The notes beneath the pieces are model-generated. The model ran no database searches. It saw only the letters and a program-made list of their open reading frames with translations, and was not told where the DNA came from. A stretch of DNA of 63,515 nucleotides, filler included, from Collodictyon triciliatum (taxonomy: Eukaryota), in assembly GCA_043381765.1 (NCBI GenBank). It is 10 parts of 10 records of this genome, joined end to end, with 100 filler letters (N's around TTAATTAATTAA, not from the genome) between each part and the next. Parts side by side here need not be neighbours in the genome. Positions count along the whole stretch, not along the records: positions 52,379 to 59,983 come from JBHJMP010003821.1; 9 more parts are not named here. One strand, written 5' to 3'. A program made the position numbers and the translations under genes. Below are positions 7,626 to 60,304 of this stretch, piece after piece. Every line of letters starts with the position of its first letter. Within the stretch, counting starts at the first letter, position 1.

Positions 7626-7723
7626 NNNNNNNNNNNNNNNNNNNNNNNNNNNNNNNNNNNNNNNNNNNTTAATTAATTAANNNNNNNNNNNNNNNNNNNN
7701 NNNNNNNNNNNNNNNNNNNNNNN
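7626..7723. other. Artificial contig linker N-TTAATTAATTAA-N (also at ~15386, 23106, 30843, 38557, 44616, 52323, 60028, 62147)
   Basis: The identical six-frame-stop 12-mer flanked by N runs occurs nine times, usually beside microsatellite-terminated contig ends. Confidence 0.98.
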
Positions 7724-13100: not shown

Positions 13101-14047
13101 TTTCCAAAAATTAATTAATTAAAGAATATATTAACTAAATGATTTACATCTTTTTCATCGACTGGGCGATAAAGTGCTCGCTCAGCATCAGTTTCAGCAA
13201 CATGATTAACGGCGTGCTCTTCATCTCGAAAATAAAAAAATGCACGTCGAGCAACGGCCTTAACTTTCAGAGCGCCGTGAACAATCTGCACAATATCAAT
13301 TCATTTAACATATTATTTTTTGGATTGAGTGAAAAAAAAATCCAAAATAATTTTATGGGATGTTCAAACCTCGTAATCAGTCACGCTTAGTCCTCTTATA
13401 TCCTTGAGATAGGGAAATTTCAAATCTGTGTCTGGATGCCATTCGGAAGGGTTTTTGTGATTCGGAGACCACCCATAACGCGAGCCAAGTGTACATAGAA
13501 AATATGGACACTGTTCGATGGATTCAAGGCAGCTAATGACAACCTAGATTTACAATGATTTGGAAAAAAAAACATAACTTAATATCCTTTCTAAATATAT
13601 ATGATTTAAACCATTTTTTTTTAATAATCTATACCAGTCCAGTTTCCGATATCTCACTCGTCAATCCCCAACGCAAATCGATGAACACCAGAATAAGTCC
13701 CTTCTTCTTGGCAAAATCTTTGAGTCTATTATGGAGTGAAAACATCAGTCAGTGGAATGTATACCAAAAATCTGATGATATAAAAAAAGCATAAACACTT
13801 ACAACTTTTCTCCATATGCAAAGAATTCATCTCTTTCTCTTTGCATGTCACGGAAAGTCGACGACATGAAAATTCTCAAGACTCTTTCTTGATGTACAAT
13901 CGCCCATCTGGTTTCACCATCAGAGAATGCAGAGCCCTGAATCACATCGCCTATGATTTTTGGAGCAAATACGGGCTCGTGCGATACCTCGACCAATATC
14001 CGATCATCAACATCCTGTTGGTTATGTCGGCTCCAAGGACATCCCAT
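8629..14047 (-). CDS. NLR-like DUF4062 / NACHT-like NTPase / TPR protein (NPHP3/TEP1-like architecture), paralog A
   Basis: MGC start; RIFMSSTFRDMQRERD, IDLRWG and LGSRYGW (DUF4062); Walker A GAESGVGKST; Walker B VVLVVDALDQL; WLP; GHPLYL..VLDELRVFG; about 8-9 42-aa TPR units (GExHPxVAxxYNNIG); stop at 8629. Confidence 0.9.
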
Positions 14048-23319: not shown

Positions 23320-24590
23320 TCATTCCACATGATGAGTCTTTAGAGGAGACAACGGGTCACTTTCCTTGCGTTTCTTACTGGGCGACTCTGACAAAAAGCG
23401 ACACATCGTTGTTTGTCTGGTATCAGTGGAAGTGGCGCTTGACCGTCCCCTGGCATCGGAACCATGCGTAGCCGGCAGTGGACTTTGCTTAACCAGAGTA
23501 TGGATACGCGTTTGTGGTTTTAGAAACATACGCTCCTGCTTGCTTGGACTGTCTTTGAGTGTGTGGAGTTCCAAGCTTGGATTCGACTTGTGCTGTTTGC
23601 TCTTGCTCCTTGGTTCTCGGTGCGACGGGCTGGGGCAGGATAAACAGACTATCTTTGGTGGGCGCTGGTTCTTGTGTCGTCTTCGCTTTGGAATATCCTT
23701 TTGGATAAGTAACGAAGACTGCATTGAGGCCTCCTATGTTAACCATATTCACGTCAGTCTGAATGGGTAGTTTAAAGGGGGATTTCTTTCGGGGTTTGGA
23801 GATGCGCTGCTCTTGGGTGTTGCGATGTACGGGCTTGTCCGGTGTTGGCGGTGGATGGTTTGAGTGCGATGATTCTGAAGAGAAACCGAGATTTCCTTCC
23901 ATGTCATTGTCGCTGTCGCTGTCTGCGCGTATCTGCTGTGAGTCATGTGGAATCTGTTGTTGCCTGGCCTTGGCTTCCTTGACCCCGTTGCTTCTTGTTT
24001 GCTTGGCGGGTGTATTCTTTGCGGGGATTTTACTTGTCGTTCATTATTCTCGGCTGGCGGACGCTCTTTAAGGATGCGCTTTGGACACTTTTTGCCCATG
24101 ACCGTAAACTTTGCAGGGAGCTGGTTCTTATGACAAAGAAGCTTCACCACGGCCGTGTCTGTGAGGAAGCCTTTGCCCTTTTTGATGTCCGCTTCGGTCG
24201 GTCTGAACGGCTTCAGTTCCTCACGAAGGAGTTGTGGCCACACGCCCAGCGGTAGTTGGTAGAGTATCACCAAGGTCTCTGTTGGTTTACTTCTGCTGAA
24301 GCTGCTCGTAATATCAATCAAACTTACCTGCTTCAGCCCCACAAGCTTTCGGGCGTTTTTTGCAGTGCGGAAGGCAATCAGGCAAAGGCCTTCGCTGTCC
24401 GGTAAGCGCAATTGGATGGACTCTTCTCAAAGCTTGTTCGCTTTCAAGAAGGAGGCGAGCGCATCGGTGAGCCTGCAGGCCTTGTTCTTGTTGTAAACGA
24501 CTTGCTCGACACCGTGCAAAAATGCTGTTCGCTCAGACAGAATTGCAGGCGGCTTCCTTACACGGGTCTTCCTAGACTCACGTTAAACAC
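23320..24590 (-). mobile_element. Degenerate non-LTR retrotransposon ORF1-like relic (two RRM-like segments plus a disordered tail)
   Basis: Intronless GC-richer block: RTAFLHGV...GLCLIAFRT...VILYQLPLGVWPQLLREELKPF...TDTAVVKL. It has an in-frame TGA at 24427-24429 and frameshifts, and a second copy lies at 49468-49772. Confidence 0.55.
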
Positions 24591-25220
24591 GGGTTTTCCG
24601 CACCAGCGTTGTAATCAAAAGAACTGGCTGCAACATTTGATGCGTTCTACACGGGTTTTGGCTTGTGGCTTTCCATCAGGCCAGGGCGTATTGAAGGTTA
24701 TGTTCACCCGCATCAAATATGAAATTTAAATTCATTATCGGAATTGGTATGACGATATCTTGGATCACCAGCATTACGTCACGTGCCTCCAACGCCGAAA
24801 GAGTAGAAGAAATACTCAGCCACCCAATTTTGTGTAAAAACCTTTTTCTCCACAAATCAAGCAAAACCAAGAAAACCAAGAAAACCAAGCAAAACCAAGA
24901 AAACCAAGCAAAACCAAGCAAAACCAAGCAAAACGACTTCTTTTATTATTTAGAATAGAATAGAATAGAATAGAATAGAATAGAATAGAATAGAATAGAA
25001 TNNNNNNNNNNAATAGAATAGAATAGAATAGAATAGAATAGAATAGAATAGAATAGAATAGAATAGAATAGAATAGAGCTTCCTTCAAGGAAAAAAGTGG
25101 AGGTCTGCCTGACAAAAAAACCCAGAGAATTTCTCCATCTAAAATGAATATGGTTAAAGAAAATATAAATTAGTAAATATATATTATATTACTTACCATG
25201 TTAAGCTGATGCTTTCTGTC

Positions 25221-28200
25221 TCACTCAGCTGCTCTCTTGGTATCCTTCTCAACACCCCATCCATTCTCATAGCATTCAGTAACAATAGAAACAGCTTTTG
25301 GATATATGTGTTTTTCACCAATTTTATCTCCCCGTTTGCCCAGAATATCTTCTTTAATTTTAGCCAGTTCTTTCAAAACATTGAACGCCTCTTTTGAGCC
25401 TTGTTGAGCTAATTGCTTCAATCTATCGAAGTCCAATGATAATTTTGGAAAGGCGACATGTCTCCACTCAGCTGCTTTCTCAGTGTCATTCTCAACACCC
25501 CATCCATTCTCATAGCAATCAGCCATCATTTGAGCCTGGAACTTGGTGAATTTATTCTGCTCACAATAAACAACAAAGTCCACATCAAAAGAAGCAGCAC
25601 CGATGGAAAATAGGATGGATTTGTTGAATCGACTCAATCCTGTGACATCTCTGATTTGTATGCTTCCACCTCGCAGCTTTCTTGAGCCGATAATCTGGAC
25701 TGTCTTTGCATCTTGGACTCTGATTTTATCAATGATGTTCATCGAATCGCTTGTTCTATTGAATACTGCGATGGCCTCATCTGGCTTTTCTTTATTGACT
25801 AGGTATTTTCCTTGAATGTAGTTCACTTCTGACGTTTGTAGGCTGTGTGTTTGGTTTCCTATGGATACATCCCAAATATGTATTGTAGTATATTCCCAGA
25901 ATCCAGAAGCCAACCAGCTTTCACCATTCGGTCCTTGAACACTGCAAACACTGGTGGCAGCTCTTGCATGGCCTTCTAAAGTTTTGATTTGGTTTCCTGT
26001 GACTGCATCCCAAACACGTATAGTTTTATCATCACTTCCAGAAGCCAACCAGCTTTCACCGTTTGGTCCTTGAATACTGCAAACACTATAGACGACATTT
26101 ACATGACCTAACCTTTTGATTTGGTTTCCTGTGGCTACATCCCAAATACGTATGGTACCATCAAAACTTCCAGAAGCCAGCCACTTTTCGCCATTCGGTC
26201 CTTGAATACTGCAAACGCTATTGACATCGTTTGTATGAGCTTTTAGTTTTTTGATTTGGTTTCCTGTGGCTATATCCCAAATACGTATGGTTCCATCACG
26301 ACTTCCAGAAGCCAGCCAGCTTTCACCATTCGATCCTTGAATACTGCAAATACTATTGACCCAATTTGTACGACCCTCTAATGTTTTCACTTGTATTCCA
26401 GTGGCTACATCCCAAATACGAATTGTTCTATCAAGACTTCCTGAAGCCAGCCAATTTTCAAAATTCGGTCCTTGAATACTGCAAACACTCGTGACAACAT
26501 TTGTATGACCTTCTAATATTTTGATTAGGTTTCCAGTGGCTACATCCCAAATACGTATTGTTCCATCATGACTTCCAGAAGCCAACCAATTTTCACAATT
26601 CGGTCCTTGAATACTGCAAACACTCTTGACACCAATTGTGTTTCCTACCAATATTTTGATATGGTTTCCTGTGGATACACCCCAAATACGTATTGTATTA
26701 TCACGACTTCCAGAAGCCAACCAAATCTCGCCATTCGGTCCTTGAATACTACAAACAATCATGACGCTATGCGTATGACCCTCCAGTTCATCATGCGGAA
26801 TTCCAAATCTCACATCTTTCATATCTGCATTATCAAAAACACAATCACCAAGCATCGAATTAGTGAAGTCAACACCATTCAAGTTGGCACCAGTGAGATT
26901 TGCACCATCAATGATTGAATTACTGAGATTTGCATGTGGAATATTGATGTTTGATAAATCCATCCCACCAAACGAAACTTTCATGAAATTCAAAAGTGTG
27001 ATAGCATCAGATGCAGCCTTTGATTTGGTCTCATCAGTCTTTGACATGTAGACAATTCTGAATAATGATGCAATGATTTGCTCACAATTCCATTCATCAT
27101 CCAATTTTGCGTCATCAAGAGTTTCACAGACGAATTCCTTGACTCTTGTAAACTCGATAGGCTCTTTGTTGATTTCGATTTCTTTTGAATGCACGGACAA
27201 GTATTTGCATGAGTTCAATGTTCTGGGGTGAATCCATCCAAGTTTATCAGCGAATCTGTCTCTCATCTCAGCACCGAATGTCACTGCTTCGTTATGTAGC
27301 TTATTCTGTTTGCAGTATTGGTGCGCTTTCTCACAAGCCACCCAGCAGTCCCAGTTTTCATAGGATGACTTTTCAGCATGTCTGATAGCAGCTGTTTTGT
27401 AAAGCTGTATAAGGGATTCATATTCATTCATTAGTAGGATAATATTCTCAATCTGATGTGTGTCTTTCAGTGACATGATTGTATTTGTCTCCTTTCTGAT
27501 AGCAGCTGCCTTCTGGAAGTATTCAATGATTTGGTCCAATCTGAATACAGGCATGTTATTTATTATTGATGTATTTTTCTAATAGACTCAACTTGTACAT
27601 TTTTTATTTTATTAAATGAGCACTATACCCTTTAAGCTCAAAGTTTGTTCTGCCAACATTTTCAAGGGAAGTTGCGTAATCAGCATGCTTTTCGCCCAGT
27701 GTTCTCATACGAATATCCAGCGTTTTCGTATACGCCCCCAAAGCACCCTTATAGCTATAATCACATGAGTAAATATATTATTGTTGCTTCAATTAAATAA
27801 TAAAAATAATTGACAAAGAGATACTCTTTCAAATCATGGCTGATATCTCCAATAATCTCATAGCAGGCCACAACATTCGGATGATTTTCACCCAGGGCAA
27901 ATATGAAAATATCCAGTGATTGCTTTAGTGAAGATAAGGCCTCAGTTTTCCTATATAAAATAATGGTTTTGATTATTTAATAATTAAAATTATATTATCA
28001 AAAATATAACCCTAAGTAGAGTCCATAAAAATGAAAGTATAAAGCCACATACATCTTGCAAAAATTTAAAGAAAGGAAAAGTTATTGTATGCAAATATCT
28101 AAAAAAATAGGAAATTCCAACTTTCTACTGGCAAGATGAGCGTTTGCAATGAATTTGATTGTCCAGGCAAAAGATGCATGCTTAGCTCCCAGCGATTTTT

Positions 28201-30798
28201 CAAGGATTGATTTCGCCTTTTCGTAATTTTTAACAGACTCTTCATACCTTGGTGATTCAATCATATAAATATTTCTCAAATAAACGATATTTTTTAAAAT
28301 GAGCTTTAATAGAATTAATATGCTACTTATTCTCAGCCAGAGAGACATGGCCGTAGTTCTGGTACGATGTTGCGACAAGAGGATGCTCGTTTCCGACTTT
28401 CTTTTGGCGAATTTCCATGGCTTTAGTGTATTCAACCAGAGCTTGCTCATTCCTATCATAAGAAATTGATCGGCAAACATATATTTACAAAGTAAAAGCA
28501 GAAATAAGGAATAGAATAAAATAAATTATTAAATGATTACTTTGCTTGCTTCATATATATGTCTCCGAAGCGGTCGTACGATTGGGCTACTTGCAAGTCA
28601 TTTTCGCCAAGTTGCTTGATTCTCAAGTCCAGTGATGTCATGTATTCTTCAAACGCCTCATCAATTCTATTTTATAAAAAAAACCAGAACATTGATTTTT
28701 TGAAACACTTTAATATAATTTATTTTAAAGAGGCAAGAGAGTCTTACTTATCCTGTTGCTGGTAGATGATTCCCATCTCTTCATGAATTGTAGCAATACG
28801 CAGGAAATTATCTTCATATTTCTCAACTGAATCGAGACATCTCTTGTAGTAGACCATGGACTCTGCCCAACTGTTTTATTTTTGTAATCTTGATTTTGCA
28901 TCGTATTTTATAATCATATGTTAATTAACAATGAGGAATGATCATTTTTATTTTACTTTTGGAGGTTCTTGTATACACGACCGAGATTCAGGTAATCAGC
29001 AGCCTTTGAATCTATAAAATAATAATATTGAAGATAGTTACATAATTTATCTTCATGGTATAGATTAATCAAACACGATGAATTGTATACCTTCTGTTTG
29101 ATGCTTTACAAGACGCACATTCAGAACAGATAACAAAAACGAGTTCTCAGAAGAATCCAAGAAAAATTCAACAAGCAGGTCTCCCACATTATCCAAAGAC
29201 TGAAAAAGAATAATGAAACTTTGAAAGTTAAATCATAATTCACAATTAAATTATGTGGGTAGTAACATTAAAAAAACCTTCGATAGACTTCCATAAACAT
29301 CATTGTAGTTTGCTGTTCCGCTTGCATTGATTGCTCTCCAGCATGTAAAGAACTCGAAGCGATAGCGGCCACCGAGCATGATTCTGATAACCTATAAAAT
29401 AATTTCAAAATTAATCAGAGAAATCGTTTCATTATACTGAATAAAAATCGAATAAAAATCGAATAAAAATCGAATAAAAATCGAATAAAAATCGAATAAA
29501 AATCGAATAAAAATCGAATAAAAATCGAATAAAAATCGAATAAAAATAAAAATAAGAAATTACATGTTTTTGCTTCATGTATTCGACAAGTAAGTCAAAC
29601 GAATTGCCATTCAGAAGCTGGTAACATATCTCAGCAGCAAGCTCCTCATCCACGTCAGCAGCCTCAGAATATTGGCCAAACAGCCATTTTCCGTATTTTT
29701 CGTGGGTTTTTTCCATCTCTTTCTTTTCAGAGTAGTAGACCTTTTCGGCAGTCTCTAACAGCAGCTGGTGAGAGTAAATGTATCTATAATAAACAATAAT
29801 GAGGTTTATATCAACAATAAAATAAAACGAAAAAAACGATTTAAAATTAGGCTAACTTTCCATTATGGACGAAAAGCGACTCGATGAGAGTAAAGAAGAA
29901 GGATTTCCTAATTGAATAAATGCATAAATAAAATCTATAAAAAATAAGATATTGGTAAACCTATTCATTCTATTAAAATTCAAGAGAAAGAAAACCATTC
30001 AGCAAGCTCGAATCCTGTGCCAATCGCGTCTTTCATGTACTTATCCAAATCACCTTCACTCAGGCCGATGCGGGAAACAAAGAGAACCTTCATCGAGAGG
30101 GACACATACTCGACCTTCATTGTCTCTTTTCCATCAGACGAGGCTACTGTACAATAAAAAAAATCATTCAATAAAAGTTGCAATATAATTACTTTTTTCC
30201 TTTTTTTTTGGCGAAATATGTAATCAATACTCACCTATCCTGTCAAACTTCAGTTGCCAGCGCTGCATAATGAGCATGTAAAGCTCAATGACACCATTGG
30301 TCGAAAGCAGAGCAAACAGTTCATCATCGAGCTTCTCATTGACACCAAAGACCCTGACTTCATCCAGAATGATGCGGAGATAGAGCCAATGTCCTTTTAA
30401 AAATTCAAATAATAAATAACTAAATAAACTGTGAAAAACCTTATCAAACTAAATGCTCTTATTAAAAATGTCTCACCAGTATCTCCAAAGTCAGCCAGAA
30501 TCATTCCAACTTGCTTTTCGTTCAGGGTCTTGTCATAGCGGATGAGGAATGATTCGACACCATCCTTTATTTCGCCCTTGGTCAACTTGGCGACAGGAAT
30601 CGGCTCCAGTCCACTTTGCTTGGCAGACTTATTACAGATACATTAATTAACCTTCCACTCAAAATCGTTTTTAACCAAAATACAAACATGTCCAAAAAAT
30701 AATATTAAATGATGAATACCGTGCAAGATTCATGGGTATGAATAGTCGACACAACCACCGCAACATTAGCTGGTGTTTCCTTAGGCAACCAGGTCAGC
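25221..30798 (-). CDS. NLR-like paralog B: NACHT-like / TPR / pentapeptide / 7xWD40 / 2xSel1-like, 5' partial
   Basis: LTWLPKETP and GHWLYLRIILDEVRVFG, with the same intron positions as paralog A. The TPR exons splice in phase (GG|A at 27540) into the long open frame with AASDAITLLNFMKVSF, ANLTGANLNG, WLASGSxDxTIRIWD repeats and ADCYENGWGVENDTEKAAEW. Confidence 0.85.
25860..26790 (-). repeat. Seven tandem 135-bp (45-aa) WD40 coding repeats with high internal nucleotide identity
   Basis: CTTGAATACT recurs at 26741, 26606, 26471, 26336, 26201 and ~26069 (one-codon deletion), with a variant copy at ~25934. Confidence 0.9.
29439..29545 (+). repeat. Intronic 11-bp minisatellite (AATAAAAATCG)n
   Basis: About nine direct copies inside an intron of NLR paralog B. 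Confidence 0.9.
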
Positions 30799-44493: not shown

Positions 44494-47114
44494 GTTTTTC
44501 TCCTTTTTTCCTTTTTTTTTTTTTTTTTTTTTTTTAGTTTTTTTTTCAATTTTTTATTTTTTTTTTTTTTTNNNNNNNNNNNNNNNNNNNNNNNNNNNNN
44601 NNNNNNNNNNNNNNNTTAATTAATTAANNNNNNNNNNNNNNNNNNNNNNNNNNNNNNNNNNNNNNNNNNNNAAACAAAAAAAAAAAAAAAACAAAAAAAC
44701 AAAAAAAACAAAAAAACAAAAAAACAAAAAACAAAAAACAAAAAAACAAAAAAAAAACAAAAAAACAAAAAAGGTTAAAATATTGCATCTTATCCAACCA
44801 CAGAAAAGCTCTTAATTTGATAAATAATTCTCACAAAATCAAAGTTCAAAAAAAAGAAGAAATTCATGAAGTATGGACCCAGAAAAAAGCTGTCTTCAAC
44901 ATTGCATTAAATTTTCCATGTATTGTAATATATAGGACATAGTTAGGTGCAAAAGTGAAGATGCTACATCTTCGCTGATTTTATTGTAAATATTCTTTTA
45001 GAATAACGCAAATAATCAACATTTAAGTTTTGATTAAAGTAGATTGTTTATTTAAACAATTTTAAACGCCTGTGCATTTACGAATTACACTTTTGAATAA
45101 ACAAAAATAAAGAAGCATCATAAGACCCTGTTAATAAAATTTGTCCCAGAATAAGCCTAAGGATATCAAAATTTATATTATGAATACCCATATAAATTAA
45201 AAATGGACATATTTCTAAGCTTAGATAATTAATAGAATGATTCCTGTTTGTTAAATTATGTATGGTGCCAAAGATATATTTTGCTGAAAACTATTGGTAG
45301 ATTCGGAGTTATAAACAAAAATCTTAACTTTTATTCTCTTTAGAAATAGATTTTCTTTAGTTTATCTGAGAGCCCGCTTCTAACTGCAAGCTTATGATAT
45401 CAAAATACTAAACGGTCGGTTTTTGTGAAAATACCAATTAAACAGCTGAATTTTCATCGCCATGCTTCATCTCGCCATCAAGGCATGTTTGGGCTTGCTC
45501 GTGTAAAGCCTGGTTTGTTGGATACTCCAATATTATCAGTCCTTTTCCGGTAAGTTTCTTTAAAATAAATAGTTATAATTGCCACTCGATATGAGTGCAT
45601 TTTGTTTTGAGGTATATAGAAGCTTTGCATTAAAATAGGTCGCATAAAGTTTTTCTAAAGGATTCGCATTACATTATCGCATTTTCTTGTAAATTTTCGG
45701 CTCCATTACGCAAAGTATATGTCCATATTTTATTAAGAATGAATATTTGATGATTTTCTGAAAGCAAAACTTTAGGTAGTTGTTATGAAACGCATACTCA
45801 TATCTTTTTCGCCTCCTCCGTGATAAACCTTGAAAATGATTCATTTTAATCACTGATGGAGAACTCTTTGAAATGACTCATATGAATGCCCTTTGTTCAT
45901 TTTGACATACACTTCATCATAAATTATTCTAATTGTAAGTTGTATTTAGGACTTCCTGTTCATGACATAAGAGACAGTTCATTAAGACACATTTTTTTGT
46001 GCTAAATTCTTGTTGGTGATTCTTGTGATAAAGGTGTACGATTCCAAAAGTAATCAATCAAAATTGGCGGCCTATATTTCGTTCTTGCGTTAAGCAAAGA
46101 AAGCTAACATTTAGTATTTTTTTTATTCAATTTGTTTCCGATGGTAGAGGAAGTAATTTTAATATATTAGAAACCATTACATACCTCGTTAGTCAGCAGA
46201 TTTACGTCTGTAATCGCATAAGTAAAAGGCTCCTCGTCAAGGTTTGTGTTTGATTTTCTTGTATATTTTAAATTATATTATATTTTCCAGATTAAATACA
46301 AGGGCACAAGAAAAAATCCGTGCCATATCTAATCTGATATCAGTCGAGACCTAAATCCTGTGCTCTTCGCAGCCTAGTGGGATGCGTCTGAACTAGCCTC
46401 CTCTTCATGACATAAAGCGAATCCAGGATTCATTCGAGAAATCAATTAAAACATATAAAACTTTGCCATGTTAAAATATTTGTGATTAAAAACTTAACCA
46501 CCTTCAATCAAAACTCAATCAAGTAGTTTCAGAATTGTTCAGGTAATCGTGGTGGAGAGGCAAATATTTCATCGAGGCATATTACAGGATGCGCAAATGG
46601 TTCTTTGTATTCAAAAGATAGAAATGTTTATGGGAATTAAATTAAAAGAGCGTTTTTTATTTTGAATATTATCATATATTTATTTCCTTTTATTACTTAG
46701 CTAGCTATTGTTTTCAAAGTCTCGGTTAATCCGCGAGCGTCAAAAGTGCTTGAAAACGCATATGCATATATATTCAATTGTTAATGAGGCAAGGGTGCAA
46801 ACCAAATCAGACATGTTAAATCAGCATATCCAGACGCGCAATAAGAAAAATTTATCAATCAATCCTGATAATTCCCCGTCGTAATTCAGTATCAGTTCTT
46901 GATCTCATCTAATTTTTCGAATCATGGGACTGTTATTCACTTTCTCACCTCCGTTACTTCTATGCGCCAAAATCTTTTAATGTTATAATTACATTTAGAA
47001 AAAAATAATGTGATTATTTGATTTCTCTCCCCTTTCAGCATCTTCATGTTTTTTTATTTTTGTTTTTTATTTTTGTTTATTTTATCTCCAGAAGCATGGG
47101 ACAATTGTCGACCA

Positions 47115-48653
47115 TTAAACTTCTAGGCCCTGACGCAGGCTACCTTGCGATAACTGCTTGTCCTTATTCTCTTGGGCATAGTAATTGTCATCGGAACACG
47201 ATGAAGCAGACCTACGCTTCTGATAGTACACCGTGCCCGCAGCTAAAAGAGAAACACCAGCCACAGCTCCAACAACCCCGCCGATTACTGTCGCCACTTC
47301 GTCATTTCCATCATCCTCGCTGTCTTTGGTGGGTGTCATCGATGGGTAAATAACTAATAATCAATTTTTTGAGTCACAAAAATTTTGTAATGAAAACTTT
47401 TTTTGACATTGAAGAAGCAGTATTCATTCTCAAAATAATTAAATAATCATACTTTCTCCAAGTTTGAAAGGGAAGATGGCCCCGTGGACTGAACTGCCAT
47501 AGTTGCATAGAGGGTCACCTACAACCACAAATGAGGATGAAACTGTAGTCACTTGGCCATACTCTATGGTTGTCCCACGATCAAGTTCTGCGCGCAGTTC
47601 GACAGGGTCATACCAAGTCGAGTTGATGAATGAAAAGACGAAAACTCGCTTTCGAATGGCTCCAAGATCACCAACAACCAAAAAACCTGGAGCATAAGAA
47701 AGGGACGAGCCCAGATTTTCAGAACCAACGTTACTTAAGGTGGTATTCACAGTCCATTCACTGTTTGACAGCGACAGAATGTAAACCACGTTGCAGTTAG
47801 AACTGCAGCCAACTGCGACAGTAGAGTTTGAAATGATTGCAAGGGAGGAGCCAATGTCGGAATCATTTACAAGTGGCAGACTGACATTATAACCAATTTC
47901 AATAAACCAGCCTGACTCGCTGTATGAGTATTTTAATGCATACACTGAGCCTTTTCCATCATTCATCAAGGGAAACCCAACCATAGCCCATGTATCACTA
48001 ATGGCCAATGAAGCACTCAATGTCTTCTGAGAATCCGTTATTTGTGATAATCGTCCACCGCGATAAGGTAAAGGAAAGAATACAACGTGACTGACTTGAT
48101 CAATTTCGTCATACTCGTACGACATAACCACATCGCCTGATATTGCCAAAAGATTGCCCAAACCTTTAAAATCAGACCCTGGCGATATGTCATCAGAATG
48201 AACCCATTGCGAGTCTTTAAGTTCGAAGATAGAAATAAAACCTGATTTGTCAAACACTTGCTTTGTTAATGGGGCTCCTACAATGATGTAGTCGTCCCTA
48301 GCAGCAACTGAGAATCCGAAGTTTGCGTTTGCTTGCAATAAAGGGGATGTTAGCTTTGTAACATACTGGAGAAAGTCACCATTCCTCGTGTAGACAAGAA
48401 CAGAGCCAGCATTGTCATAGTAAACAGAGTCTGATACGATGTCATCGTAGGGCACGCCAACAGCGAGAGTCTTACCACTGGGCGACAGAGAAACCGAGTT
48501 TCCGTACTGGGCATACCTCGTTACGAGACTTTCGTCCGGCGAGATTGCTGGCAAAGTGTTCCACTCGTCCTGAGCAGCAACAAGAGAGCAGGCGAGAAGA
48601 CCCGCGATGGATGCGAGAAGCACAGAGGCAGCGAGCTTTTGGTGCTTTTGCAT
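47115..48653 (-). CDS. FG-GAP (integrin-alpha-like) beta-propeller type I membrane protein, 2 exons
   Basis: Signal peptide; YGNSVSLS..LAVGVP, FGFSVAA..IIVGAP and further FG-GAP-like blades; one intron near 47359-47453; TM VIGGVVGAVAGVSLLAAGTVYY followed by KRR. Confidence 0.85.
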
Positions 48654-49467
48654 TATCAGGATGCGAAGAACACACTAGGCAAAATGTAGATCAGAAAATC
48701 TGTCGGGGTGCGGGCGATAGCGCGACGGGTTGATTACGCCATCAAGGATTACAACAAGATTGTATGATAATTCAGGTTGCCGTGAACGAGAGCGAGTCTT
48801 GGGGTTAGACAAAGTGTTGGTAGGATTGGCTTGGGTGAGTGAAGATATGTTGCTCTTTCCTTCTGTTTCTATTGCTGTGATTTCGTCCGCATTTAGAAAC
48901 GATGGTTTGCTGTTGGGCGAGCGCGTAGAGCGCAGGTATATATACTCTGGAGAGCATCAAGGAATTCTTTGGATTTGCGCAGTCCCGTTGTGGCGAACTT
49001 TGGCATGTCCAGAGACCGTTCGTCGAACGCCGTCCAAATCCGTCGACGAGAATATTCCACACACGCTACGAATATTTCTCGGTGAACGGTTCTAATGCAG
49101 TATAAAATAAATAGTATATTAGATATGGTATATTATTATTCCTTTTCTGCTTATGTCGCCCAAGGTCAAGATGCGTGTTTGCTTTCTGTATTCTGGAAAG
49201 AAGGCTTTGTCAACATCCTGTGCGTATATCATAGCTGCATGGGCATACACGCTTGACATCCTTTTGTGAACGATGGAAAATAAAGAAAACTGCTGCACAC
49301 GGGTTGTGTTATTACTATGCTGGAAGAATATCAGAAAGTAAGTGCCCCTTTCGATTATTTTTTTTCGATTCCAATCATGATACAGACTCTGCTGTATCAG
49401 TAATTGTAAGGCACTTCAAAAACAGCGTGCCTATCCGTCGTCAAGAAATCTTGCGGCATCAAATAAT

Positions 49468-49772
49468 CAGCTTCAGCAGAAGTAAACCAACAGAGACCTC
49501 GGTGATGCTCTACCAACTACCACTGGACGTTTGGCCGCAAGTCCTTCATGAGGAGCTGAAGCCGTTCAGACCGACCCATGTGGAGATATCAAAAGGACAA
49601 AAGGCTTCTTCACAGACACAGCCGTGGTGAAGCTTCTTTGCCATAAGAACCAGCTCCATGCAAACTTTACGGTCATGGGTAAAAAGTGTCCAAAGCGCAT
49701 CCTCAAAGAGCGTCCGCCAGCCGCGAACAACGAACGACAAAAGCCCCGCAAAAGAATACACCCGCCAAGCAA
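49468..49772 (+). mobile_element. Truncated second copy of the ORF1-like element, abutting the THG1 3' end
   Basis: About 300 bp clearly homologous to the reverse complement of ~23998-24303 (SFSRSKPTET...KKCPKRILKERPPA), with a frameshift. Confidence 0.7.
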
Positions 49773-49798
49773 GACTTGTATAAAGTTTTTTATGTAAA

Positions 49799-51651
49799 CT
49801 AATCACAGGCCAAAATCTCTGGGTGATTAGTCCAGAATGCATCAGAGATAATATCATCATCTAGAATCACCACACGCATCTTTGAACGCACGACTTGTTT
49901 TCCGTCTCTCCCGGTGTGCTCTACATCGACCTATGACATAAAATATGAGAAAACATACTCTTTTCTTTCTTTCCTTTTTAAAAAGAACTTTCATAGCGAT
50001 GCATCTGAAGTGCTTGACACACTAAAGCATTCAGAAAACTAGGCAAGAAAATACAACTCACATTATGTCTTATCAGTGTGGACCCTTTGCGAAGGATGGC
50101 GGGGATGTGATTGTAATTAAGGTTGAACTGGGTGAACAACATTTCGTTCTTGAAATCTGACAATGTGCCCTGTTATACAAGAATTTATCATGTCGATTAC
50201 CATAACAAAATGTTCAGCATATTTTAAAAGCAATACATGCAGGCATACTTTCAAGGTCCTCTCGGATTCGTCTCTGGACTTTCCCGACTGCACCAGGTAC
50301 CAGAAGCAGGTGTTGTACAAATTGTTGATGTGGCCTTTGTGGATTAAAAATCATCAGCTATATTTTTGTTTATTTCTAATTATCAATTTTGGACACTGGT
50401 GTTTTTGTATATTTTTTTTACAAGAGGTGAAAGGTAGAATATAATCATGATACAAATGAATTTTATCTGCTGAGTGTCTTATTCCTCTGATTTAAAGAAA
50501 GGATGAATTTACTGTGATTTTTTCTTCTTCTTTTTTTTTTTTTTACTCACAATCAGCTTGTCTCCAGCTAAGATAATCTCTTAGATTCTTGTCCGTTGGG
50601 TAGCACACGGTACGGGCGTCAAAGGTTGGCGGGAACTGCAGCTCGACAGTAGGGAAGAAGCTTTTCCAATGGAAGACATAGCTTGCGGCAAAGAAACTTG
50701 ATATATTGGAGCATATCTTGCTAGAGTAGATAACGACAGGTAAAAGTCACACTCGATTTTTTTTGAGGTATATGCATACTCATATTTGATGAATCAGCCT
50801 ATAAAAAGACCAAAAAATAAAATAAAATAGATATTGGTGTTTCTTGACAAGAATTATTCCTTTTTGGAACAAGAAATGAGTGCAAAGAGAAAATTGACGG
50901 ATTCTAATCTTTCGTGAGTATTGAAGTGCCAAACTATGGCTGATGCAAACGAAGAAGCCTGGAGAGAAAATTAGGATAACATGACCTACATCGATATTAC
51001 CTAGATCTCCTGCTGAAAACGCTAGAAGTTTTCTTTATGACGAAGCTACGATATGAGAAATCCCATTAAAGCAGAAGCGAATACTAACTAAAGAGTATAT
51101 ATTTTTTTCATATATCTCATTTGATCCATATTTTTTTTTTGAGATGGGTGAGTCTATGGTCATAACATGAGTTAAAGTAAATAGTAACCTATATTCGTCA
51201 CTTTGGCCATACGCAAGAACGATATCGTGCCACTCGTAGACAACTGCTTCGGCACATCGATTCATTAAATGCAGTGCACGAAGGTCGTTTGGTTTTTCAA
51301 ATGAGTGAGCGTCACAAAACCTTGGCATGAAACAAAACAAAACAAAACAAAACAAAAAAAGAGTAAACAGTGACTAATAAGCGAATTGCAAAGTGAAGTA
51401 AAATGATTGTACACGAAGATAGAGATATTAAAAAAATAATTGATGCAACGAAATATGCTTGGCACGGGCGTAAATATATACATCTATGAAAAATCAAAAG
51501 AATTAAAGATAAAAATGAGTAAATGAAAAACGGGAGGACTATGTTACTTTGTAAAACCACGACCGTCGAGCCGAACAACGATCCAGGTGTTTGGAAGAAG
51601 AGAATCATTCTGCTCGAAGTGGCGCACATACTCAAACTTTGAGTTTGCCAT
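49799..51651 (-). CDS. THG1: tRNA(His) guanylyltransferase, 7 exons
   Basis: [72 protein letters not shown] and [15 protein letters not shown]. Confidence 0.97.
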
Positions 51652-54600
51652 TCTGTCCCACGTTTCTCTTGACCTGCCCGAGCGAAGTATCTTACTGTAA
51701 GTAACAAAGACACTCTGACTTACTTGCCACACGCATTTTGCAATGCCCCTGTGGGTGAAAAGAACGTATCTCGTATACCTTTTGAGAGGTGGTTTTTGCC
51801 TTCCTGCAAGTTACTTTGCGGATCGTGTTGAAACTTGTTTTTTTTTTTTTGTTTCTGCTTTACTTTTCTGTTTTGTTTTTTTTTCCTTCATCAGTTGCGT
51901 ATTATTGTCTTGTGTTTCTTGTGTTTCTTGTTTTTCTTGTGTTTTTTTTTCCCACCAGCTAAAAGATCTTGTTTGTTCTTTATTCTTTCATAATGTGTTA
52001 ATTTTTTTTTTGTTATTAATAGAAAGGGAGCTGAGTATGCTGCGCCACAAAGAAATTAAAAGGAGAAATGAAAGAAATAAAGAAATGAGAGAAAAAGATG
52101 TAAGCTAAGAAGCACACATTGTTACGATGGAAGCTCTGTCATCCTTCTGTTTTCTGAAAAAAAAAACATCCGAGTCGTATTTCTCCGATACGTCCAATAA
52201 AACCGAATCAAAAACAGCCCGATGTTAAACAAGGAAGAACCCAGACTCCCTTTGCAAGACATCATCTTGACTCCACCCNNNNNNNNNNNNNNNNNNNNNN
52301 NNNNNNNNNNNNNNNNNNNNNNTTAATTAATTAANNNNNNNNNNNNNNNNNNNNNNNNNNNNNNNNNNNNNNNNNNNNAAAGGGAACTGTTTCGATCTAC
52401 TACTTGGAGGAGGGGGGAGGGGTGGTGGATCGGCGGCTCCTAGTTTTCCCGATGGTCTGAAGTAAAGGTCTAAGAACGTACGGTGGGGGTGTTGGGTTGG
52501 GTTGGGTTGGGTTGTGTGTGGAAGTAAGTATGTCTTTTTCCAGTCATTCACGACCAAAAAATAAATAAAATAATAATATTCGTTGTAAATTTTTGTAATC
52601 AAGAGTCATGTATCCTTTTTTTGCGGTAAGGAGACTTTATTTAATTTGAAAACGTTACCTATTTAACATATAAAATACAGCATGCATAATGTCGAATATT
52701 TTAATTAAAAATATTTCAGTTGTAAAACTATTACTAATGGAGCACAAAATCTATAAAATTAAGAATTATCATCGGAGTCTGGCCATGCTAGGTTTTTTAT
52801 TATTCAGTTGATAGATTCAATATAGTATGATAACATATAATCAATTTTTTTAATATTTATAATAAATACAATAATATCAGCTATATATTCATTTTCTAAT
52901 AAAGTTTAATCAAGATGAATTGTTTGCCTACAGAATCGTCATACTATGTCGTTTATTTTTCAATAATCGTATTACGTATCGCCTTGTGAATACGAAATCT
53001 ACAAAAAAATCTTTAAATTGCGTATCTACTAGAGAAGCTTAGTTATCTGCAGAATTTTGATATCCGTATTTTAAATTCCGTCTTAATTAAATCAATAGAT
53101 ACACTTTTGCATCAAATGTGAATTTTAAAAACAACTAACCAACATATGAACCATTATTATATCCAAATCGAAAAACACATACCATATCCCCGCTAAAAAC
53201 CAGTCTGCCGCTGAATGATGCACCACCCCTCCCCCTTGACCGAACTGCAATCTTTTGTCCACAGCTTCACACCCATACCCCTCACCTTACTAGACCTTGT
53301 TCGTTTCTCCAAGTGAAATGATTTGTAGGTTTATCGCTCAATAAATAAACCAATATAATAGTTAATCGTTGTTATATCATCTAAATTAGTTCAATTTTCT
53401 CCTTTAAAGATTTAGATGTCGATTTATCAAATCCAACAAACCCACCCCTCCCCCTTCCAATTCCAAATCAATCAGAGGTAATAAGACGCATACCGATATT
53501 CGCTTTTGTATTGTCCCGATTAACCAAGGATATGATAGACGGTTCACGCCCTTTTTATTTTTTTCGATTATCATCATTCACGTATATTCAAAAATTCTTT
53601 TTATGCATACATAATATTTTCGTATATTTATGTTGATTCCCTGAATGATTTATTTAGTTAATCCACCACATACATTATGACTTCTATGATTGTTTCATAT
53701 TATTAAGTCTGATAGTGTTCAGTTTATTATGTTTGATCAAAATATCGCAGAGTACAATTATTAAATACGATTACAATTTAATTTCTTTATCTATTATTCA
53801 TCAATTTTCAACTAGGAACATTATCTCTGTATTGATGCACACGTAGAATACCTCAATGACTACATTCTCAATTATAAATTACCTTTGAAACGATTGTGCT
53901 AGTAAATTTATTAACATTCAGACCTTTGTTGCCTTTCTCATAGTAATAATTATATTTTGTATCAAAATCTAGTTCTAACCTTAGTGTAATAGACTTATTC
54001 TATTCAGAGCTCCAAAGAAACTTCATAGCACATAGTCTTCAAATTCTCAATGGAATATATGATTTACATATGACATATCACTATTAATAGTCATAATAAT
54101 AAAACAATTTTTTATCAGAGTGATTTGGTTTTGATTAGTATAGCTGGTTTTAGCTCAATGAATCATATAAATATGGTGACTGTGACAAATATGTATTTTA
54201 AAGAGAGGTCAATTAAAAATCACTATATTTGGGACTTATGATAGAAAATGAGATAATAATTAACATTAATCAGATAAGTAAATGCAAAATGATACAGAAA
54301 CTTGTTGTTAATCATGAAATCTATTAGAGATGATATCCAATACTCACACAACATATTTTAATACTGCAATCAGTTGTTAATGAAATTTTACTGTATATTA
54401 GGATGTATTTCATCTCTTGAGCCATATTTTGTACATAGACGGTTATACTTCAAGTGTCGACATATTTTATATTTTATATTTAATCAATAATATAGTTAAC
54501 TGAAAGACAATTTGCCAAGTTATATTAAATCATAATTTTAATTTCTATCAGATACCATCGAAATCCATGTTCTAAAGAAATCTTTTTGTTTGCTCCTGTA

Positions 54601-56220: not shown

Positions 56221-59200
56221 ATGAGATTAAACTCAAAGTCATTTGCAGCTCTGTTGCTGTTGGGTGAGTTTTAAATTGTTTTTTTTTTAATTTTATTGAC
56301 TTCAAATTACATAGAATTTTAATTAATATATCTTTAGGATTGATGCTCCACTGCCAATTGTGTCTTGTTGAAGGGCAAGATGATTCGATTCGCACATTGG
56401 CTGGTGATTGGACTATTTGGAGTGTTGCTGTTACTCCTGATGGCTCTAAAATTATCTCTGGAAGCGAAGATAAAATAATCAAAATCTGGAACCTTTCTGA
56501 TGGAACTTTGATTCAAACATTAACTGGTCATACAAATAGGGTTTACAGTGTTACAGCCACACCTGATGGCTCAAAAGTTGTTTCAGGAAGTATGGATAGT
56601 ACAATCAAAATTTGGAATCTTTCTGATGGGTCTTTGATTCGCACATTGACTGGTCATACTGGTGAGGTTCGCAGTGTAGCCGTTACTCCTGATGGTTCAA
56701 AAATTGTCTCTGGAGGTGGCGACAACACAATCAAAATTTGGAATCTTTCTGACGGAGCTTTGATTCGCACGTTGACTGGCCATATCGGTGCTGTTATAAC
56801 TGCTACTGTTAATCCTGATGGCTCAAAAATTGTTTCAGGAAGTGGTGATTATACAATCAAAATTTGGAATCTTTCTGATGGGTCTTTGATTCGTACATTT
56901 ACTGGTCATACTGGTGAGGTTCGCAGTGTAGCTGTTACTCCTGATGTCTCAAAAATTGTTTCTGGAAGTAGAGATAGGACAATTAAAATCTGGAACCTTT
57001 TTGATGGATCTTTGATTAGCACATTGACTGGTCATACTCATTATGTTGACAGTATTTCTGTTACTCCTGATGGCTCAAAAACTGTTTCTGGAAGTGCTGA
57101 TAAAACAATCAAAATCTGGAATCTTTCTGATGGAGCTTTGATTCGTACATTGAATGGTCATACTGATTGGATTCGTAGTGTTACTGTCACTCCTGATGGA
57201 ACAAAAATTGTATCTGGAAGTGGGGATTATACAGTCAAAATTTGGGGACTTTGTGTCGCTGGTCAGTTTTATGATACAGTTTCAAAGTCTTGTCAACTAT
57301 GCCCATCCGGTAGCTACAGCGCTGGAGGAACCTTATCTTGTACTTTGTGCGTTGTTGGCACATACAATCCATCTACTGGACAAACATCATGTCTTTCATG
57401 TGCAGCTGGCACATACAATCCATCTACTGGTTCCACAAGTGTTGGTGCTTGTCTTTTATGTGCAGCTGGCTCGTTTAATCCTTCAACCGGTCAAGCAACC
57501 TGTCTTTCATGTGCAGCTGGAACATACAATCCATCAACTGGTTCTACAAGTGTTGGTGCCTGTATTTTTTGCCAGGAAGGAAAGTACAACAACAAAACTG
57601 GTCAGATATCATGCCCTAATTGCGAACCAGGAACATATAGTCCTTCAAAAGGACAGACATCGTGTTTTGACTGTCCATTAGGTTTCTACAATCAAGAATC
57701 AGGAAAAACATTTTGCACACCATGCGACCCAGGGACATTTTCAAATTCGACAAAAGGGAAATCTTGTGAAAAATGTCCAGCCGGAACTTTTAATCCAAAC
57801 GTTGCGTCAACCAGCATAAGCAGTTGTCAACCGTGCCCACAAGGGAGACACTCATCAAAATCAGGCGAATCAACATGTGAACTTTGTCAACCTGGTTCGT
57901 ACAATCCAATGTCTGGTCAGACTGGGTGCACTAATTGTACTGATGGAACATATAATCCAAGATTTGGCTCAACAAGCAACAAATCATGTGCTGAGTGTCC
58001 GATAGGAACGTATGGTAATGAACAAAGAGATGAATGTGTATCATGCTCAGCTGGAACATTCAACGATAAAACTGGTTCATTCAACCAAACATCATGTGTT
58101 TCATGTCACAATGGAAGCTACAGTTCAGAAAGAAGTGCATCATGCAGTTTCTGCTTGTCGGGATTCTATCAAAAAGAAGGAATCATAAAAGACTCGCAAT
58201 CATGCTATGCTTGTCCAAAAGGCACATTCAACTCAAACTCTGGCTCATATGGAGACAAATCATGCATCGAATGCCCACAAGGTACTTGGAATGATAGATA
58301 TGGTCAGGCATCATGCACATCATGTCCAGCTGGTACATTCAACAATAAAACTGGCTCATTCGATCAATCATCATGCATTTCGTGTCCGAATGGAAGCTAC
58401 AGCTCAGAAAGAAGCTCATTATGCAGCTTATGCTCATCAGGATACTATCAAAAAGAAGGAATCGCAAAAGACTCAAAATCATGCTATGCTTGTCCAAGAG
58501 GCACATTCAACTCAAACTCTGGCTCATATGGAAACAAATCATGCATTGAATGTCCACAAGGCACATGGAATGATAAAGATGGTCAAGCATCATGCACACC
58601 ATGTCCAGCTGGTACATTCAACAATAAAACTGGCTCAATCAATCAATCATCATGCATTTCGTGTCCGAATGGAAGCTACAGCTCAGAAAGAAGCTCATCA
58701 TGCAGCTTATGCTTATCCGGGTACTACCAAAAAGAAGGAATCACAAAAGACTCAAACTCATGCTACGCTTGTCCAAAAGGCACATTCAACTCAAAATCCG
58801 GCTCATATGGAAACTCATCATGTATTGAATGTCCACAAGGTACTTGGAATGATAAAGATGGTCAAGCATCATGCACATCATGTCCAGCTGGCACATTCAA
58901 CAACAAAACTGGCTCATTCAATCAATCATCATGCATTTCGTGTCCAAATGGAAGCTACAGCTCAGAAAGAAGCTCATCATGCAGCTTATGCTCATCAGGA
59001 TACTATCAAAAAGAAGAAATTATAAAAGACTCAAAATCATGCTATGCTTGTCCAAGAGGCACATTCAACTCAAACTCCGGCTCATATGGAAACATATCGT
59101 GCATTGAGTGTCCACAAGGCACTTGGAATGATAAATATGGTAAAGCATCATGCACATCATGTCCAGCTGGTACATATAACGATAAGGCTGGCTCATTCAA

Positions 59201-59983
59201 TCAATCATCATGCATATTGTGCCTAGATGGAAGCTACAGCTTGGAAAGAAGCGCATCATGCAGCTTATGCTCATCAGGATTCTATCAAAAAGAAGACATC
59301 ACGAAAGACTCACAATCATGCTATACTTGTCCAAAAGGCTCATATAATCCAAACTCCGGCTCATATGGAAATAAATCATGTATCGAATGTCCACAAGGTA
59401 CTTGGAACGATAGAGATGGTCAAGCATCATGCATGTCGTGTCCATCTGGCACATTCAACAATAAAACAGGCTCATTCGATCAATCATCATGCATTTCATG
59501 TCCAAACGGAAGCTACAGCTCAGAAAGAAGCGCATCATGCAGCTTATGTTCGTCAGGATTCTATCAAAAAGAAGAAATCACAAAAGACTCGGAATCATGT
59601 TATACTTGTCCAAAAGGCTCATTCAACTCTAACTCCGGCTCATATGGAAACGTATCATGTATTGAATGTCCACAAGGCACTTGGAATGATAAGGATGGCC
59701 AATCATCATGCACATCATGCCCAGCAGGTACATTCAACAATAAAACAGGCTCATTCAATCAATCGCCATGTATTTCATGTCCAAACGGAAGCTACAGCTC
59801 AGAAAGAAGCGCATCATGCAGCTTATGTTCGTCAGGATTCTATCAAAAAGAAGAAATCACAAAAGACTCAAAATCATGTTATACTTGTCCAAAAGGCTCA
59901 TTCAACTCTAACTCCGGCTCATATGGAAACGTATCATGTATTGAATGTCCACAAGGCACTTGGAATGATAAGGATGGCCAATC
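56221..59983 (+). CDS. Signal peptide / 7xWD40 / long Cys-rich (GCC2/GCC3, ephrin-receptor-like) repeat protein, 3' partial
   Basis: Exon 1 (56221-56263) plus intron 56264-56337 gives MRLNSKSFAALLLLGLMLHCQLCLVEG-QDD; seven 42-aa WD40s; then CxxCPxGTY/F repeats to the contig end in one exon of over 3.6 kb. Confidence 0.9.
58040..59983 (+). repeat. 279-bp (93-aa) higher-order Cys-rich tandem repeat, about 7 copies, running off the contig end
   Basis: The Gly codon of CPQGTWND falls at 58281, 58560, 58839, 59118, 59397, 59676 and 59955. Confidence 0.95.
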
Positions 59984-60304
59984 NNNNNNNNNNNNNNNNN
60001 NNNNNNNNNNNNNNNNNNNNNNNNNNNTTAATTAATTAANNNNNNNNNNNNNNNNNNNNNNNNNNNNNNNNNNNNNNNNNNNNTCTCTCTTTTTTCTCTC
60101 TTTTTTCTCTCTTTTTTCTCTCTTTTTCTCTACTAATATTTCGATTTTTTTCGGTTTTTAATCCCACTTGTAAGAAGCTACTCAATCGCTGGCTTCCTCG
60201 TTTTATTTTGAGTATATATATGTATTTATAAATCATTCTTTGGTGTGTGAGAAAGCCTAGTAGCCTCAGCTTTGCGTGTGAAAGTCATTCGTTATTTTCC
60301 TTAG

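Follow-up and report, generated by a model that had tools for sequence, protein, structure and literature searches.

A probable secreted seven-blade WD40 propeller on an Ephrin_rec_like cysteine-rich stalk in Collodictyon triciliatum

The 63,515-nucleotide (nt) stretch of Collodictyon triciliatum DNA analysed here (the window, positions 1-63515) carries, from 56221 to the end of its contig at 59983, a gene whose product appears to place a WD40 propeller outside the cytosol. WD40 propellers are among the commonest interaction platforms of eukaryotes and are typically intracellular. In this gene, a putative cleavable leader is followed by a single seven-blade WD40 head, which is fused directly to a rod of cysteine-rich modules of the Pfam family Ephrin_rec_like (PF07699), and we consider it likely that this architecture is genuine and that the head resides in the secretory or extracellular compartment. 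The most likely role of the protein, which we put forward with less confidence than its architecture and location, is to bind a ligand at the tip of an adhesin or receptor on the cell surface.

The frame that encodes most of the protein (56340-59981) is free of stops over 1214 codons and lies in DNA with a GC content of 24-40%. Its first part, at 56376-57251 on the plus strand, specifies a head of 292 residues made of exactly seven 42-residue units, which extend from just after the predicted signal cleavage site to just before the first Cys of the stalk. Pfam WD40 (PF00400) matched the head in seven stretches (E = 2.7e-70; 230.3 bits against a cut-off of 27), and Tandem Repeats Finder (TRF) described the blades as a 126-nt array of 6.5 copies with 78% matches. 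AlphaFold2 folded the head into a closed seven-blade propeller of 28 strands (pLDDT 98.3, pTM 0.94), so the complete propeller that had been proposed for this gene is well founded. The alignment given to AlphaFold2 had 48 rows, namely the window head, the related head of metagenome contig L024 (see below), three metagenome loci and 43 of 54 single-propeller prokaryotic loci (the first 45 prokaryotic references were used, and L100 and L119 were dropped). The top Foldseek matches were G-beta-type WD40s: 7big, a designed seven-blade WD40, and 5yzv, the WD40 of the actinobacterial kinase PkwA (both TM 0.96, rmsd 0.7-0.9), along with the repetitive Nostoc propeller 2ymu. Cys is absent from the head, and five of its blades carry an N-L-S sequon.

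Variation among the blades is concentrated at few sites. In the six complete 42-residue units (blades 1-6) on which entropy was computed, the maximum (2.25 bits) fell at unit positions 7, 9, 25 and 27, in a register that was set by a HET-E unit and is presumably equivalent to HNWD numbering. Blades 2-7 share 75-86% DNA identity, and their framework codons, with a synonymous divergence (dS) of 0.37 and a ratio of non-synonymous to synonymous divergence (dN/dS) of 0.34, are under purifying selection. Chevanne et al. (PMC2873952) describe four selected top-face codons in the HNWD repeats, at positions 7, 9, 25 and 27. As a description, then, the term HET-E-type for these internally conserved repeats holds good, as the variation peaks at the same positions as in HNWD.

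The stalk begins directly after the last blade with a non-periodic run of Ephrin_rec_like repeats (57252-58039, plus strand), and continues as a tandem array of 279-nt units, each encoding 93 residues with 10 Cys (58040-59981, plus strand; 7.0 copies, TRF 89% matches). PF07699, formerly GCC2_GCC3, matched at least 21 repeats (E = 3.9e-142; 462.4 bits against a cut-off of 23.1). The Cys-rich part spans residues 320-1229, that is 910 residues with 99 Cys, and contains 26 of the 31 N-x-S/T sequons of the protein, the other five being in the head; the original prediction of more than 900 residues of sequon-rich Cys repeats is thus upheld. The 93-residue units diverge with a dN/dS of 0.22, so the array is under selective maintenance, and its extension to the last base of the contig accounts for both the assembly break and the missing C-terminus. 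The closest solved chain to the stalk is Chlamydomonas MST1 (8tx1, E = 6.9e-26), which is built of Ephrin_rec_like Cys modules as well, followed by ELAPOR1 and TNFRSF9. MST1 is described in PMC10602792 as an extracellular mastigoneme glycoprotein whose ephrin-receptor-like Cys modules form a disulfide ladder. By analogy, the modules of the present stalk would be disulfide-bonded in a ladder-like manner, heavily N-glycosylated and located outside the cytosol.

Upstream of the propeller, the gene model calls for a small first exon. The proposed exon 1 (56221-56263, plus strand; 43 nt) contains the ATG, codes for a basic n-region plus the first half of a hydrophobic leader, and ends in phase 1; a proposed 74-nt intron (56264-56337, plus strand; GTGAGT...TTTAG) separates it from the start of exon 2 (56338-56375, plus strand), which would supply the second half of the leader and a predicted cut between VEG and QDD. 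Joining 56221-56263 to 56338 onward yields a 1229-residue product without stops. The 11-mer and the 19-mer of highest hydrophobicity in this product both fall within residues 7-25 and are preceded by two basic residues, whereas the next-best 11-mer (1.87) belongs to one of the Cys repeats; the 1229 residues thus show no membrane segment. The joined, predicted-splice model shows a basic n-region and a hydrophobic core, and both -3 (Val) and -1 are occupied by small residues, as in a putative signal peptide; signal cleavage is predicted before QDD. GC content also follows the model, at 0.40 in exon 1 and 0.39 in exon 2 as against 0.23 for the 5' flank and 0.15 for the intron, and 9 nt before the ATG there is a stop in the same frame. 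Neither the cut motif nor the second half of the core depends on the splice, since both are encoded in the main frame. Two further inferred introns in the window, in an FG-GAP gene and a Thg1 gene, are likewise GT-AG and AT-rich, with lengths of ~98 and ~222 nt.

The same kind of head also occurs on a different scaffold. Metagenome contig L024 (2429 nt, 42% GC) contains one unspliced frame with a Met, a hydrophobic leader of ~26 residues, a WD40 head, a Ser-Gln linker and FG-GAP_2 repeats (E = 1.5e-25). Its head is 73% identical to that of the window over 294 aligned residues (~75% in DNA), with a similar GC content at third codon positions (GC3; 0.20 vs 0.23). Both heads open with DDSI directly behind their leaders, close at KIW, and carry an IWNLSDG sequon per blade. 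L024 differs in that its leader has no intron and in having FG-GAP_2 where the present protein has PF07699; relatives of its FG-GAP part are only 23-35% identical, and none of the 51 among the matches listed has a WD40. The L024 layout indicates that the leader-plus-head unit exists independently and has been combined with another extracellular module, and the head would accordingly be a self-contained module.

We place the head outside the cytosol because of the leader, the lack of a membrane segment, the direct fusion of a Cys-free head to a disulfide-type stalk, and the arrangement in L024. A cleavable leader would direct the nascent chain into the endoplasmic reticulum, which would make the product a secretory-pathway glycoprotein of this AT-rich microbial eukaryote. 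The mature protein would then consist of a single seven-blade WD40 propeller followed by a rod of at least 21 Ephrin_rec_like modules, whose disulfide-type, sequon-rich repeats would fold in the secretory pathway. Since the head lies behind the leader and is fused to the stalk without a hydrophobic segment in between, it should share the stalk's compartment. The earlier description of the gene as an extracellular WD40 receptor is consequently supported in its location, by the four lines of evidence just given, but its receptor role is deduced from the architecture.

Several observations weigh against the proposed architecture and location. The leader splice is read from genomic DNA, and 19 in-frame GT-AG joins are formally possible in the AT-rich 5' region, several of them with hydrophobic products. 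The junction between WD40 and Cys repeats is known from this one contig. A local BLAST over 423 gathered proteins returned none with both WD40 and PF07699, which is weak evidence of absence because the listings were dominated by multi-propeller and giant Cys-repeat proteins, and a metagenome scan with a junction query gave 80 loci, 25 with WD40, 55 with Cys repeats and none with both. The C-terminus of the protein, including any anchor or signalling parts, lies beyond the contig end. We found no studied precedent for a WD40 propeller with five N-glycan sites, and L024 may not be eukaryotic. Lastly, the four variable codons of the blades are saturated (non-synonymous and synonymous differences per site, pN 0.66 and pS 0.69; ratio 0.84), so that positive selection on them is not demonstrated.

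As to the splice, only one of the 19 joins, 56263/56338, combines a GTGAGT donor, a T-rich acceptor ending in TTTAG and a full-length hydrophobic leader; a second join that uses the same GTGAGT donor gives a short, weakly hydrophobic leader. The 43-nt exon 1 with its 74-nt intron is thus the best of the 19 and the predicted structure. Four freshwater metagenome DNA runs offered short pieces that were 85-100% alike, none of them shown to bridge the intron. The small first exon of the original prediction, with its hydrophobic leader ending in VEG-QD, is therefore supported by a stop-free join and a canonical leader, but the splice itself was predicted and is one of 19 formally possible joins. 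A cytosolic or nuclear WD40 scaffold, with Cys repeats that bind zinc and no export at all, would suit both the predicted nature of the splice and the usual intracellular home of eukaryotic WD40 propellers. Yet every in-frame join produces a hydrophobic N-terminus, the leader of L024 is unspliced, the stalk holds its 26 sequons and a PF07699 match at the E-value given above, and those of its relatives with known structures (the MST1 fibre, ELAPOR1 and TNFRSF9) reside outside the cell or in a lumen. We regard a cytosolic scaffold as very improbable.

An artefact could also have joined the head to the stalk, either as an assembly chimera of two genes or through a wrong gene model in which the leader is spurious and translation starts at an internal Met. 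The assembly is highly fragmented, with ~7.6-kb contigs and gaps, the gene ends in a collapsed-looking tandem array, and a second WD40-Cys junction was found neither among the 423 proteins nor among the 80 loci. Metagenome pieces matching the gene's contig are 135-332 nt long, and none was shown to bridge the head-stalk junction (57252) or to reach the 3' end. Against this, the junction is in frame within the 1214 stop-free codons, its WD40 and Cys sides share no repeat, and their codon composition is similar (GC3 0.23 in the head, 0.30 in the stalk). Moreover, the heads of this protein and of L024 stop at an identical residue, and in L024 the chain goes on into another extracellular module. 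Starting at an internal Met would leave a hydrophobic stub that is too short for a leader and pointless in a cytosolic protein. Taken together, these points make a chimera or a faulty model quite unlikely, and we proceed with a single gene that encodes leader, head and stalk.

We then asked how far this architecture is already known. WD40 and PF07699 did not occur together in any protein among the matches listed in two near-length searches (0 of 120 in each), nor in the best 150 of 481,668 matches of an exhaustive search (E <= 0.001). A protein atlas returned generic WD40 clusters only, at 0.84, and Rfam gave no match. A WD40 head on a PF07699 stalk was not found in the main texts of the literature searched, and neither was a portable secreted WD40 head in a seeming eukaryote. 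What the literature on extracellular, secreted or periplasmic WD40 did contain was CRINKLY4 and cyanobacterial caspases.

Among relatives of the stalk, heads of other kinds are frequent. PF07699 co-occurs with RCC1 (PF00415/PF13540), Kelch and NHL families among the stalk matches listed, and by their domain content propeller or lectin heads of other types appear to be common on such stalks. Identity to the stalk is 27-40% in listed proteins and reaches 60% in the best segment of metagenome loci. In two of these relatives (L002 and L010) a leader directly precedes the Cys repeats, and in a third (L007) a segment that looks bulb-lectin-like by eye, and that was not checked with Pfam, stands between the leader and the repeats. 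A hydrophobic N-terminus is present in 50 of the 91 stalk relatives that start with M, and none of the 95 gathered has a WD40 head.

An analogue is found in plants. In a report on CRINKLY4 (ACR4/PpCR4; bioRxiv 10.1101/2020.08.10.245050), the ectodomain is described as N-glycosylated and as comprising a signal peptide, an N-terminal seven-blade propeller called WD40 and a Cys-rich TNFR-like domain, with the propeller thought to bind the ligand. The succession of leader, seven-blade propeller and Cys-rich domain is thus the same. CRINKLY4-type receptors continue behind the Cys-rich domain with a single transmembrane segment and a cytoplasmic kinase, a region that in the present gene would lie past the contig end at 59983. 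However, the CRINKLY4 propeller is BLIP-II/UVR8-like and has one disulfide per blade (same source), whereas the present head lacks Cys and has G-beta-type WD40s as its closest folds, and for this reason the protein is not a CRINKLY4-type member. Judged by its sequence, it belongs to the WD40 and PF07699 superfamilies and, more loosely, among the protist stalk proteins whose heads are exchangeable. The claim that no described family has this architecture must therefore be narrowed: a second protein with both WD40 and PF07699 was not found, but proteins in which a leader precedes a propeller or lectin head on a Cys-rich stalk are common in general, and CRINKLY4 is a known case. The general design is already known, and the WD40 head on a known stalk design is what is new.

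What the protein does is a further question. As the head is N-terminal, any anchor would be C-terminal, and 39 of the 95 stalk relatives have a C-terminal hydrophobic 19-mer. The propeller would thus occupy the distal tip of the rod, whether the rod stands on the cell surface or is part of a secreted fibre. There it most likely binds the ligand of an adhesin or receptor, through the top face, where the blade-specific residues at positions 7, 9, 25 and 27 would create an asymmetric site. The main competing view of function is that the protein has a structural part in a fibre outside the cell, a scale or an extrusome, with a propeller for polymerisation or docking. MST1, the nearest solved relative of the stalk, forms fibres (PMC10602792), and a structural rod would be in keeping with the length and recent amplification of the tandem array; by a crude test, 56 of the 95 stalk relatives lack a C-terminal hydrophobic segment. 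MST1 is nonetheless a different protein: according to the same source, it forms filaments, has nine Ig-like domains and a polyproline-II tail, and has no propeller head, and neither Ig-like heads nor a polyproline tail is present within the sequenced part of the gene. The top-face variation among blades, too, speaks for an asymmetric binding site, although a docking partner would fit it as well. We consider a structural subunit unlikely, though less so than the artefact or the cytosolic scaffold, and favour a ligand-binding tip.

The variability of the blades recalls the fungal HNWD/HET-E receptors, and it had been proposed that a NOD-like receptor (NLR) type sensor module was moved to the cell surface here. 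The likeness consists in internally conserved 42-residue units with variation focused on four top-face positions. The differences are that the fungal proteins are cytosolic, possess HET and NACHT domains and have more than seven units, whereas the present head has exactly seven and comes without an NTPase. No NACHT or other NTPase was found, Pfam giving WD40-type and Cys-repeat families only among the 25 of 46 families listed, and because blade 1 directly follows the leader there is no room for one. Lacking an NTPase, the protein is not an HNWD NLR.

Prokaryotic proteins offer an alternative source for such a head. In the best 80 prokaryotic loci, ~70 of which are from filamentous or other cyanobacteria by record title, the heads are 45-57% identical to that of the window. 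A Hanks-type kinase motif precedes the propeller in 32 of the 80, with a hydrophobic 19-mer in between in 21 of these 32; an N-terminal hydrophobic segment is present in 12 more, and 36 have neither pattern. Pfam, applied to 10 of the N-terminal parts, recognised Pkinase in three of three and Trypsin_2 in four of four, and gave nothing useful for the other three. Metagenome loci L062, L064, L068, L049, L059 and L063 have the same order of kinase, transmembrane segment and WD40 as the cyanobacterial loci, and the cyanobacterial loci L088, L102, L131, L121 and L076 encode proteins in which a trypsin-like protease domain lies between a hydrophobic N-terminus and a seven-blade WD40 at the C-terminal end. 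These are likely to be exported proteases that use the WD40 for targeting; L076 has two such genes in tandem. On two contigs of Promethearchaeota (Asgard) metagenome-assembled genomes (L099 and L104), hydrophobic segments were seen before WD40 regions ~50-53% identical to the head. Periplasmic WD40 arrays on bacterial kinases are predicted in PMC11032199, and this prediction, together with the kinase and protease loci, indicates that extracytoplasmic WD40 is ordinary in bacteria. These bacterial proteins (cyanobacteria, Planctomycetota; PkwA-type) thus contain the nearest prokaryotic heads and, in 5yzv, one of the closest folds, but theirs are prokaryotic kinases or proteases with neither a Cys-rich stalk nor N-glycosylation.

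Whether the head came from such a source by transfer was put to a quick maximum-likelihood tree of 75 seven-blade segments, which is unrooted, carries composition warnings and deals with repeat arrays that evolve in concert. The tree joined the head with that of L024 (SH-aLRT 99); next to this pair, and on the same side of a branch with an SH-aLRT of 96, is a group of 19 rows. It consists of 10 fungal NACHT-WD40 arrays, a Reticulomyxa protein, two Nitrospirae-type proteins, three Bacteroidota loci, one Pseudomonadota locus and two metagenome proteins. Descent from a bacterial periplasmic WD40 is favoured by identity (53-57% to cyanobacteria vs 40-52% to fungal NLRs) and contradicted by the tree, so neither is decisive, and the head may be of cyanobacterial or of fungal-NLR-like origin. 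The proposed relocation of an NLR-type module is thus not demonstrated, given the missing NTPase, nearest prokaryotic heads of the kinase-transmembrane-WD40 and leader-protease-WD40 kinds, and a tree that does not settle the matter.

Combining these strands, we can tentatively imagine a freshwater microbial-eukaryote lineage in which a portable secreted unit of leader and seven-blade head was shuffled onto at least two unrelated extracellular scaffolds, the Cys-rich stalk and the FG-GAP propeller of L024, for outward-facing recognition with a HET-E-like logic of variability, possibly seeded by cyanobacterial extracytoplasmic WD40 sensors. This scenario is speculative, and we hold it to be doubtful in comparison with the architecture and location from which it starts.

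The genomic surroundings of the gene are limited by the nature of the window, which is a chain of ~7.6-kb contigs separated by spacers of the form N44-TTAATTAATTAA-N44 (at 7669, 15386, 23106, 30843, 38557, 44616, 52323, 60028 and 62147). As the window is concatenated in this way, genes on either side of a spacer are not genomic neighbours. Contigs are themselves interrupted by additional N-runs (391, 566 and 10 nt). The WD40-Cys gene is on the contig at 52379-59983, the first 3.8 kb of which are gene-poor (GC 24-31%), and is truncated at 59983; an N-run starts at 59984, and the sequence from 60084 on is a different contig, unrelated to the gene. Pyrimidine-rich or short-period low-complexity repeats were seen at contig ends and in some interiors (60085-60130, 24816-25188 and 44672-44830), and they probably cause the fragmentation of the assembly. 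Look-alike open reading frames (ORFs) on two contigs, at 23749-24426 (minus strand) and 49235-49860 (both strands), were noticed by eye in translations; a dispersed repeat or mobile element is the probable source of both.

Other genes in the window include a multi-exon gene at 25221-28525 (minus strand) with TPR_12, pentapeptide, six Pfam WD40 stretches and Sel1. It is cytosolic-looking, and its WD40, though internally conserved, is of another kind than the blades of the secreted head. From its domains, this gene looks like the sensor end of a protein resembling signal transduction ATPases with numerous domains (STAND) or NLRs; the upstream ORFs examined yielded no NTPase domain, and further unassigned ORFs reach up to 30642. 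At 13367-13543 (minus strand), a short match (44% over 61 residues) was obtained to residues 109-166 of P0045, a metagenome protein that has NACHT and WD40-type families among its precomputed Pfam assignments. A gene for an FG-GAP_2 type I membrane protein (47115-48674, minus strand) starts with a hydrophobic leader ending in VAA before QDE and has a ~98-nt intron (GTATGA...TTAG, phase 1), followed by a hydrophobic segment and a short tail. We considered this gene as a tie between L024 and the present organism and rejected it, the similarity being 22-46% over short segments and 27% in the best-scoring one. The gene for Thg1 (tRNA-His guanylyltransferase; 51035-51810, minus strand) is split by its ~222-nt GT-AG intron, and more exons are probable, down to ~50100; this gene speaks for the contigs being eukaryotic.

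If the proposed architecture and location are correct, a G-beta-type WD40 at work outside a eukaryotic cell would add a new type to the receptor heads known from cell surfaces, and such a head would be a glycosylated, Cys-free domain at the tip of a disulfide rod. The protein would also provide a tractable case of domain shuffling among cytosolic-type sensors, bacterial periplasmic sensors and protist adhesins. Given the very high confidence of the predicted fold and the small number of variable surface positions, expressing the head should be easy, as should screening it against candidate ligands (prey, glycans or self, for example).

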